Shown here: positions 32,990 to 33,198 of the stretch, one piece after another
Layout: every line of letters starts with the position of its first letter
How positions within the stretch are numbered: position 1 is the first letter of the stretch
DNA from: Escherichia coli
Lineage (GTDB): Bacteria; Pseudomonadota; Gammaproteobacteria; Enterobacterales; Enterobacteriaceae
DNA: 64,000 nucleotides
Direction: 5' to 3' (one strand)
Assembly (NCBI RefSeq): GCF_024502345.1
Contig: NZ_JALDNN010000001.1
Made by a program: the position numbers and the translations under genes
Notes under the pieces: generated by a model
What the model was told of the DNA's origin: nothing
The model's database searches: none
Seen by the model: only the letters and a program-made list of their open reading frames with translations

Positions 32990-33150
32990 AGACAAATCCT
33001 TCGCCAAAATTAAAGGGGCATCTGTAAAACGAGGGATTATGCGCGGCAAATAAGAAGTGCGGAAATAGCGAAATGCAAAATTATAACCTGCTGCACATTT
33101 TATTTTTAAACGAATAAAATTTGGAATAAAGCAAGTCAGATAGAAGAAAC

Positions 33151-33188
33151 AAAAAAGCAGAGTGTGAAACAGTAAGTTCACACTCTGC
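33151..33188 (-). terminator. Rho-independent terminator downstream of ycaD
   Basis: Perfect 12-bp stem GCAGAGTGTGAA / TTCACACTCTGC with an 8-nt loop, followed on the minus strand by TTTTTTG. Confidence 0.75.
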
Positions 33189-33198
33189 TTGAATTCAT

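Follow-up and report, generated by a model that had tools for sequence, protein, structure and literature searches.

The 209-bp ycaD-ycaM spacer of Escherichia coli: a terminator for ycaD, a probable control region for ycaM, and a 476-residue YcaM

The window analyzed here is a stretch of 64,000 nucleotides of E. coli DNA that runs in the reverse orientation of the chromosome. The ycaD gene, encoding an MFS transporter of 382 amino acids, occupies positions 33199..34347 on the minus strand (ORF list; Pfam MFS_1, E = 2.7e-40; RefSeq) and ends in a TAA stop codon at 33201-33199, as given by the ORF list. It is followed on the same strand by ycaM, which encodes an APC-family permease of 476 amino acids at 31559..32989 with an ATG at 32989, an assignment supported by RefSeq, Pfam AA_permease_2, and the alignment of orthologues. 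The two genes are flanked by ycaN (+), ycaK (-), pflA (+), ycaC (+), and dmsC (-). Positions 32990-33198 are the exact 209-bp intergenic spacer between ycaD and ycaM as annotated in RefSeq K-12. At the other end of ycaM, the stop codons of the convergent genes ycaM and ycaN abut at 31558/31559 with zero spacer, and the pair has been described as a convergent "excludon" on the basis of RNA-seq overlap (PMC12288877). The substrate of YcaM is uncharacterized (PMC12624714). The ORF list extends ycaM mechanically to 31559..33181 on the minus strand, giving a 540-residue product that starts at a GTG at 33181 and adds 64 codons (32990..33181) to the N terminus. An earlier note on this DNA had reported this longer ORF and had proposed that the ATG at 32989 yields the 476-residue protein; the ORF list bears out the first statement, and the RefSeq ycaM CDS, which is 476 codons long in K-12 and other strains and matches the ATG at 32989, agrees with the second. 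A Shine-Dalgarno sequence, AAGGA, is found at 32997..33001 on the minus strand, 7 nt 5' of this ATG, and is conserved as AAGGA or AGGAA across genera.

Directly behind ycaD lies a hairpin at 33155..33190 on the minus strand, identified by a repeat finder, a terminator scan, and RNA folding. Its arms form a perfect inverted repeat, AAGCAGAGTGTGAA / TTCACACTCTGCTT, at 33155-33168 and 33177-33190, giving a 14-bp stem with an 8-nt loop, CTTACTGT. Read along the minus strand from the ycaD stop codon, the order is TAA ATGAATTC AAGCAGAGTGTGAA CTTACTGT TTCACACTCTGCTT TTTTGTTTCT, with 8 nt between stop and stem. The G-C-closed core of the stem comprises 12 bp (33157-33188), which two outer A-U pairs extend to 14 bp, and 6 of the 14 pairs in the terminator scan are G-C. 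A U-rich tract, UUUUUUGUUUC, follows the G-C-closed stem directly on its 3' side; the U-tract TTTTGTTTCT is located at 33145..33154 on the minus strand. The perfect 12-bp stem and T-run that the earlier note had placed at 33151..33188 correspond to this core together with a T6 run at 33151-33156. The GTG of the long ORF (33181-33179) sits within the 5' arm of the hairpin, a point absent from that note. The hairpin RNA folds with a ΔG of -22.8 kcal/mol (z = -5.7), a stability that 0 of 200 shuffled sequences reached. A perfect 14-bp inverted repeat with a loop of 3-8 nt is expected by chance about 0.0014 times per 64 kb, and only three perfect repeats of at least 12 bp occur in the whole window, another of which is the pflA/ycaK terminator. 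The ycaD hairpin shows weak symmetry, AA preceding the stem, and is not an obvious bidirectional terminator because the opposite strand lacks a good T-run.

The position of the RNA 3' end was taken from published Term-seq data (Adams et al. 2021, PMC7815308). Supplementary file 1 of that study lists MG1655 947069(+) as a curated 3' end, assigned to ycaD as "primary", with the sequence context AATGAATTCAAGCAGAGTGTGAACTTACTGTTTCACACTCTGCTTTTTTGT|TTCTTCTATC. For conversion of K-12 to window coordinates, the ycaM ATG at K-12 947229 was set equal to window position 32989, and the mapped 3' end therefore corresponds to window position 33149. This position lies in the U-tract, 8 nt beyond the G-C-closed stem, where intrinsic termination would place it. 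The 947069 record occurs once in the three-condition Term-seq table with a modest read count of 885 (PMC7815308), and appears to belong to the M63 glucose condition. Compared with canonical Rho-independent terminators of E. coli (Adams et al. 2021, PMC7815308), the ycaD element shares the G-C-closed 12-bp stem and the 8-nt loop, a similar U-tract (6 U's, then G, then 3 U's), a stem start 9 nt past the stop codon on the same strand, and the same placement of the 3' end relative to the stem. Nothing substantive differs, although the ycaD stem is longer than average and its outer A-U pairs overlap the U-tract. The hairpin has every sequence-level and mapping feature of an intrinsic terminator, namely a G+C stem-loop, a 3' U-tract, a position after the stop codon, and, from the literature, an RNA 3' end in vivo, and we identify it as the ycaD terminator. 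Rho independence and termination efficiency we infer.

Comparison of genomes supports this assignment. The first 45-50 nt of the spacer, containing the hairpin and the T-run, are present in 5,424 of 5,426 complete E. coli genomes, whereas the rest of the spacer and ycaM are found in only ~4,360 of them; the ~1,060 genomes without ycaM retain the hairpin beside ycaD. In APEC O18, for example, ycaM-ycaN-ycaK are missing, ycaD abuts pflA, and the hairpin is intact, with similarity stopping directly past ...GCTTTTCTGT, where the pflA terminator starts. The hairpin, being kept in APEC O18 without ycaM, therefore segregates with ycaD and not with ycaM. Across species, a hairpin with a ΔG of -10 or lower and a T-rich tail was sought within 30 nt of the ycaD stop codon, and such a terminator-like hairpin was found in 52 of 79 species compared with 8 of 237 control segments taken from within ycaD. 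Its frequency was similar whichever gene came next (ycaM, 15/24; pflA, 15/21; other, 22/34). The hairpin sequences at the 3' end of ycaD are unrelated from genus to genus. Turnover of sequence between genera is usual for terminators. Within Escherichia, 94.8% of the stem is paired, and the changes seen are G-U-preserving ones and one weakening variant (G to A, in 2 sequences). No double-sided compensatory changes were present in the stem within Escherichia, so that covariation adds nothing for the ycaD hairpin, and it was dropped as an uninformative line of support.

The remainder of the spacer behaves differently from the terminator. In an alignment of 24 spacer sequences the terminator half is unalignable between genera, whereas the ycaM-proximal half is conserved, with two blocks (33034-33105, minus strand) shared by Escherichia, Citrobacter, Salmonella arizonae/diarizonae, Kluyvera, Yokenella, and Pluralibacter. 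Block a, AAAATAAAATGTGCAGCAGGTTATAATTTTGCA, lies at 33075..33105 on the minus strand; its consensus is AAAATAAAaTGTGCag.aGgTTAtAaTTTTgCA (about 33105-33075), and the sequence around TGTGC...TTTTGCA has imperfect dyad symmetry, which in Pluralibacter becomes a perfect palindrome of 9 bp. A promoter scan returned TTAAAA-18-TATAAT at 33109..33080, overlapping block a, but the TATAAT of this match becomes TGGAAT or TGGAGT in Kluyvera. The second block contains GCATAAT at 33034..33040 on the minus strand, invariant in 24/24 and 20/20 sequences, which is a candidate -10 element (CATAAT) or leader element; loss of TATAAT in Kluyvera makes this CATAAT an alternative -10 candidate. The ycaM promoter presumably lies within the spacer; the ROSE supplement has no entry for a ycaM transcription start site. 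No Rfam match with E below 0.1 was found in the spacer, and the consensus fold of the ycaM leader has an energy of -1.46 kcal/mol with 0 compensatory pairs. With neither an Rfam family nor a consensus structure, the blocks look like DNA-level signals or an unstructured leader, and a structured RNA or riboswitch in the ycaM leader was rejected. Two other candidates did not hold up in the alignment: sigma-54 and CRP readings of block a, made by eye, were set aside when the -24 GG and the second CRP half-site proved unconserved, and a conserved leader peptide was discarded as the ATG in AAAATGTGC varies, with A, G, T, or C before TGTGC.

Repression of ycaM by OmrA and by an OmrA 5'-end mutant, and not by OmrB, has been reported with no mapped site (bioRxiv 10.64898/2026.06.26.734639). 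Pairing of OmrA with the invariant GCAUAAU was tried and rejected, the duplex energies being no better than those of dinucleotide shuffles, and when OmrA and OmrB were scored against the leader (33110-32930) simply by duplex energy, the results were likewise no better than those of shuffled controls. One tentative reading is that the ~160-bp ycaM-proximal part of the spacer might be an uncharacterized regulatory module, either the operator of an unknown conserved regulator or a leader for repression by OmrA. Its footprints would be TGTGC...TT.A.TTT.CA and GCATAAT, invariant across six enterobacterial genera, and it would move with ycaM as a gain/loss cassette whose edge lies at the ycaD RNA 3' end. 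We consider this less likely than not.

Another arrangement of the two genes is that the terminator is leaky or acts as an attenuator, tying ycaM to read-through from ycaD in a conditional ycaD-ycaM operon. The genes lie on the same strand 209 bp apart, a ycaM transcription start site was not found in the sources searched, and Adams et al. include the ycaD 3' end in their list of "3' ends upstream of ORFs", at a distance of 160 nt from ycaM (PMC7815308, supplementary file 3). The first upstream feature in their table is, however, an ORF and not a transcription start site. A further point in favor of coupling is a weak FliA (sigma-28) ChIP-seq site with the motif TATGCTAATGCAGAATTTCTCCGATAAT inside the 3' end of ycaD (~33296-33323, minus strand), directed toward the terminator and ycaM; no FliA-dependent expression change was reported at this site (PMC4183435). 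A 5'-leader attenuator or riboswitch of ycaM would need a spacer promoter upstream of the terminator and an alternative RNA structure, a combination that was not found, and the 8 nt between stop and stem leave no space for an antiterminator or leader. The stem and U-tract are strong, ycaD retains its terminator where ycaM is missing, and the promoter-like conserved blocks lie 3' of the hairpin and accompany ycaM in the different genera, in contrast to the terminator, whose sequence turns over. Coupling of ycaM to ycaD by read-through thus appears unlikely, and separate transcription of the two genes is the better account of the spacer.

The boundary between the two parts of the spacer coincides with variation in gene content. 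Three layouts were found among the 5,426 complete E. coli genomes (window 29919-33149; loci L002 (APEC O18), L008, L009, and L011): ycaD-ycaM-ycaN-ycaK-pflA in 3,315 genomes, ycaD-ycaM-(short ycaN/ycaK remnants)-pflA in ~1,040, and ycaD-pflA in ~1,060. This three-state ycaM/ycaN-ycaK polymorphism has its left edge at the ycaD terminator; in the third layout the junction lies 0-5 nt from the mapped 3' end of the ycaD RNA, and the terminators of ycaD and pflA stand back to back ~8 nt apart. In strain YZ22MPE6 (L003, 1811-2612), the 5' arm of the ycaD hairpin carries an IS1 insertion at ~33179-33187 with a 9-bp target duplication, CAGAGTGTG, and an 11-bp version of the stem is regenerated 3' of the element. 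The presence/absence boundary, 0-5 nt from the end of the U-tract, and the IS1 insertion would both suit a palindrome that is a REP-like repeat or mobile element, or a protein-binding or recombination site acting at the DNA level, and that resembles a terminator by accident. A REP sequence would be present in many copies per genome, but the palindrome is single-copy, with 1 as the median number of places per genome across 5,424 genomes, and it has no Rfam or repeat match. The RNA 3' end maps where intrinsic termination predicts, and in other genera this position is taken by unrelated hairpins. We regard an accidental resemblance as very improbable and retain the hairpin as the terminator of ycaD.

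The 64-codon extension was examined for evidence of coding. None of the 3,317 homologues of the 540-residue query spans the extension, the highest coverage being 88%, which equals 476/540. In an alignment of 20 homologues ranging from Escherichia to Paenibacillus, Brevibacillus, and Clostridium, all begin within ~3 residues of the E. coli ATG, and conservation sets in at K/L-R-W-Y-N. The Pfam AA_permease_2 match begins at residue 75 of the 540-residue form. As in APC-superfamily permeases generally (AA_permease_2, PF13520), the domain match starts 10 residues past the ATG, and the same short cytoplasmic N terminus is shared by all relatives, in taxa that extend from Enterobacteriaceae to Paenibacillus and Clostridium. 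A YcaD profile scan with one genome per species gave 80 loci, 23 of which have a ycaM orthologue (89-99% identity) directly 3' of ycaD. The ATG and the motif MA(G/S)xQEKQLRWYNIA are conserved in all 23, whereas the upstream frame is closed by stops or frameshifts in 20 of the 23, with a stop within 7-48 codons. E. albertii, for example, has a stop at 39 codons, and indels interrupt the frame in E. coli E69 (2 bp) and Escherichia sp. E1V33 (1 bp). The frame stays open in E. coli and at the near-identical loci L008 and L009; in Kluyvera cryocrescens it is open by chance. Within E. coli, a 1-bp deletion in the T-run of strain 03_3469 puts the extension out of frame, yet ycaM is annotated as usual there.

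The composition of the extension is also that of non-coding DNA. Its GC content is 35.4% compared with 47.6% for ycaM and 51.1% for the window, its GC3 is 0.33 compared with 0.54 for ycaM, and it has a codon-usage score of -0.02 bits/codon, compared with 0.30-0.58 for all 64-codon windows of ycaM. Simple shuffles of the T-rich extension stay open in 4% of cases, so that the open frame is weak evidence for coding. Inspection of the sequence revealed no Shine-Dalgarno sequence before the GTG at 33181, which lies inside the stem. The extension has none of the properties of a genuine coding N terminus: it shows neither protein-level conservation with the frame kept nor coding-like composition, and it has neither an accessible start nor a Shine-Dalgarno sequence. 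The earlier note had described these codons as AT-rich, which the GC content confirms. It had asked for an orthologue alignment, in which conservation proved to start at the ATG region, and had named cross-species conservation of the 64 upstream codons as the observation that would count against the shorter start; this was looked for and none was found, and the short-start reading stands. Its central argument, that a terminator inside the ORF supports the shorter ycaM start, is upheld by the homologues, the loci of the 23 species, Term-seq, and INRI-seq.

With respect to initiation, INRI-seq places a peak at 947229, the annotated start of ycaM, in 5/5 replicates (PMC9825163, Table S2). The INRI-seq template starts 30 nt upstream of the ATG and includes the Shine-Dalgarno sequence; the peak shows that the ATG with its Shine-Dalgarno sequence is initiation-competent in vitro, and the assay is blind to the GTG (PMC9825163). 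The in vivo Ribo-RET value for ycaM (Meydan et al.) is 0 in the same Table S2 (PMC9825163), the TRAINSPOTTER table (a 2026 N-terminomics compilation) lists ycaM at the database start with INRI evidence only, and a literature search found no N-terminal peptide or in vivo start-site signal for YcaM. RefSeq and UniProt give YcaM as 476 amino acids, and this form represents a cluster of 11,288 sequences. The 90%-identity cluster also holds two "MFS transporter" entries of 382 and 363 amino acids (P0250 and P0251) that look YcaD-like, which is probably a clustering artifact. The 540-residue form persists in GenBank as ABV05357.1 (E. coli HS), ABV17845.1, BAG76482.1, and AXI36108.1. A genuine start at the GTG or at an internal TTG, producing a 64-residue N-terminal extension, would draw on these records and on the frame being open in E. 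coli, but with no homologue aligning to the extension, the frame closed in most species and in one E. coli strain, non-coding composition, a GTG buried in the -22.8 kcal/mol stem, and ycaD transcripts that stop 32 nt downstream of it, this can be dismissed almost with certainty. The 540-residue call is a real annotation error that is still circulating. Over-extension of starts to the longest ORF is a common error in prokaryotic annotation that has later been trimmed in RefSeq and UniProt. The ycaM extension resembles this class in being the first upstream start after a stop, without a Shine-Dalgarno sequence or conservation, and in its intergenic composition and overlap with the terminator of the upstream gene, with no difference apparent.

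Taken together, we are highly confident that the 209-bp spacer consists of the ycaD terminator and the ycaM control region, that the 540-codon ORF is an artifact, and that YcaM has 476 residues. The spacer is non-coding and divided in two, with the ycaD-proximal 50 nt serving as terminator and the remaining ~160 nt as control region. The nascent ycaD RNA would form a hairpin of 12-14 bp, RNA polymerase would pause at the U-tract, and the transcript would be released at about 33149. The ~160-nt part probably contains a promoter/operator or a leader for ycaM, represented by the two conserved blocks, followed by the Shine-Dalgarno sequence and the ATG at 32989. The 540-residue ORF exists solely because the T-rich spacer by chance has no in-frame stop back to the GTG in the terminator stem. 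The terminator and the 476-residue start are already reflected in curated annotation and in the published 3'-end atlas, and the feature is an ordinary one. The main value of the analysis is annotation hygiene, as it confirms the curated YcaM start. The 540-residue form (E. coli HS, E24377A, and SE11) is unfit for cloning, structure prediction, and proteomics databases, and, as a general rule for ORF tracks, the terminator of an upstream gene within a predicted N terminus is a strong sign of over-extension. For work on the uncharacterized YcaM transporter, it is useful that the analysis shows ycaD to form its own transcription unit and ycaM to have separate conserved upstream signals.

Several further observations concern the surroundings and distribution of ycaM. 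In APEC O18 (L002, 5399-10352), a P2-like prophage with genes for an integrase, a C-type repressor, Cox, and a replication endonuclease lies just beyond pflA. The pflA gene is annotated there as 265 amino acids compared with 246, and this longer form beside the prophage suggests that the 5' end of pflA holds an attachment site. YcaM is patchily distributed in Enterobacteriaceae, and its nearest relatives outside the family are found in Paenibacillus, Brevibacillus, and Clostridium at 63-70% identity. Between E. coli and Kluyvera, Citrobacter, or Salmonella, YcaM is 89-94% identical, whereas identity in the neighboring YcaD is limited to 80-90%. One YcaM homologue (P0019) looks mosaic, with a central segment near-identical to the E. 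coli protein. Together, these features hint that ycaM has moved horizontally. A simple recent transfer from Firmicutes, prompted by next-best matches in Paenibacillus and Clostridium at 65-70%, was dropped because closer orthologues (89-94%), encoded beside ycaD in Citrobacter, Salmonella arizonae/diarizonae, Kluyvera, Yokenella, and Pluralibacter, had been masked by clustering at 90%. One YcaM homologue (P0019) looks mosaic, with a central segment near-identical to the E. coli protein.
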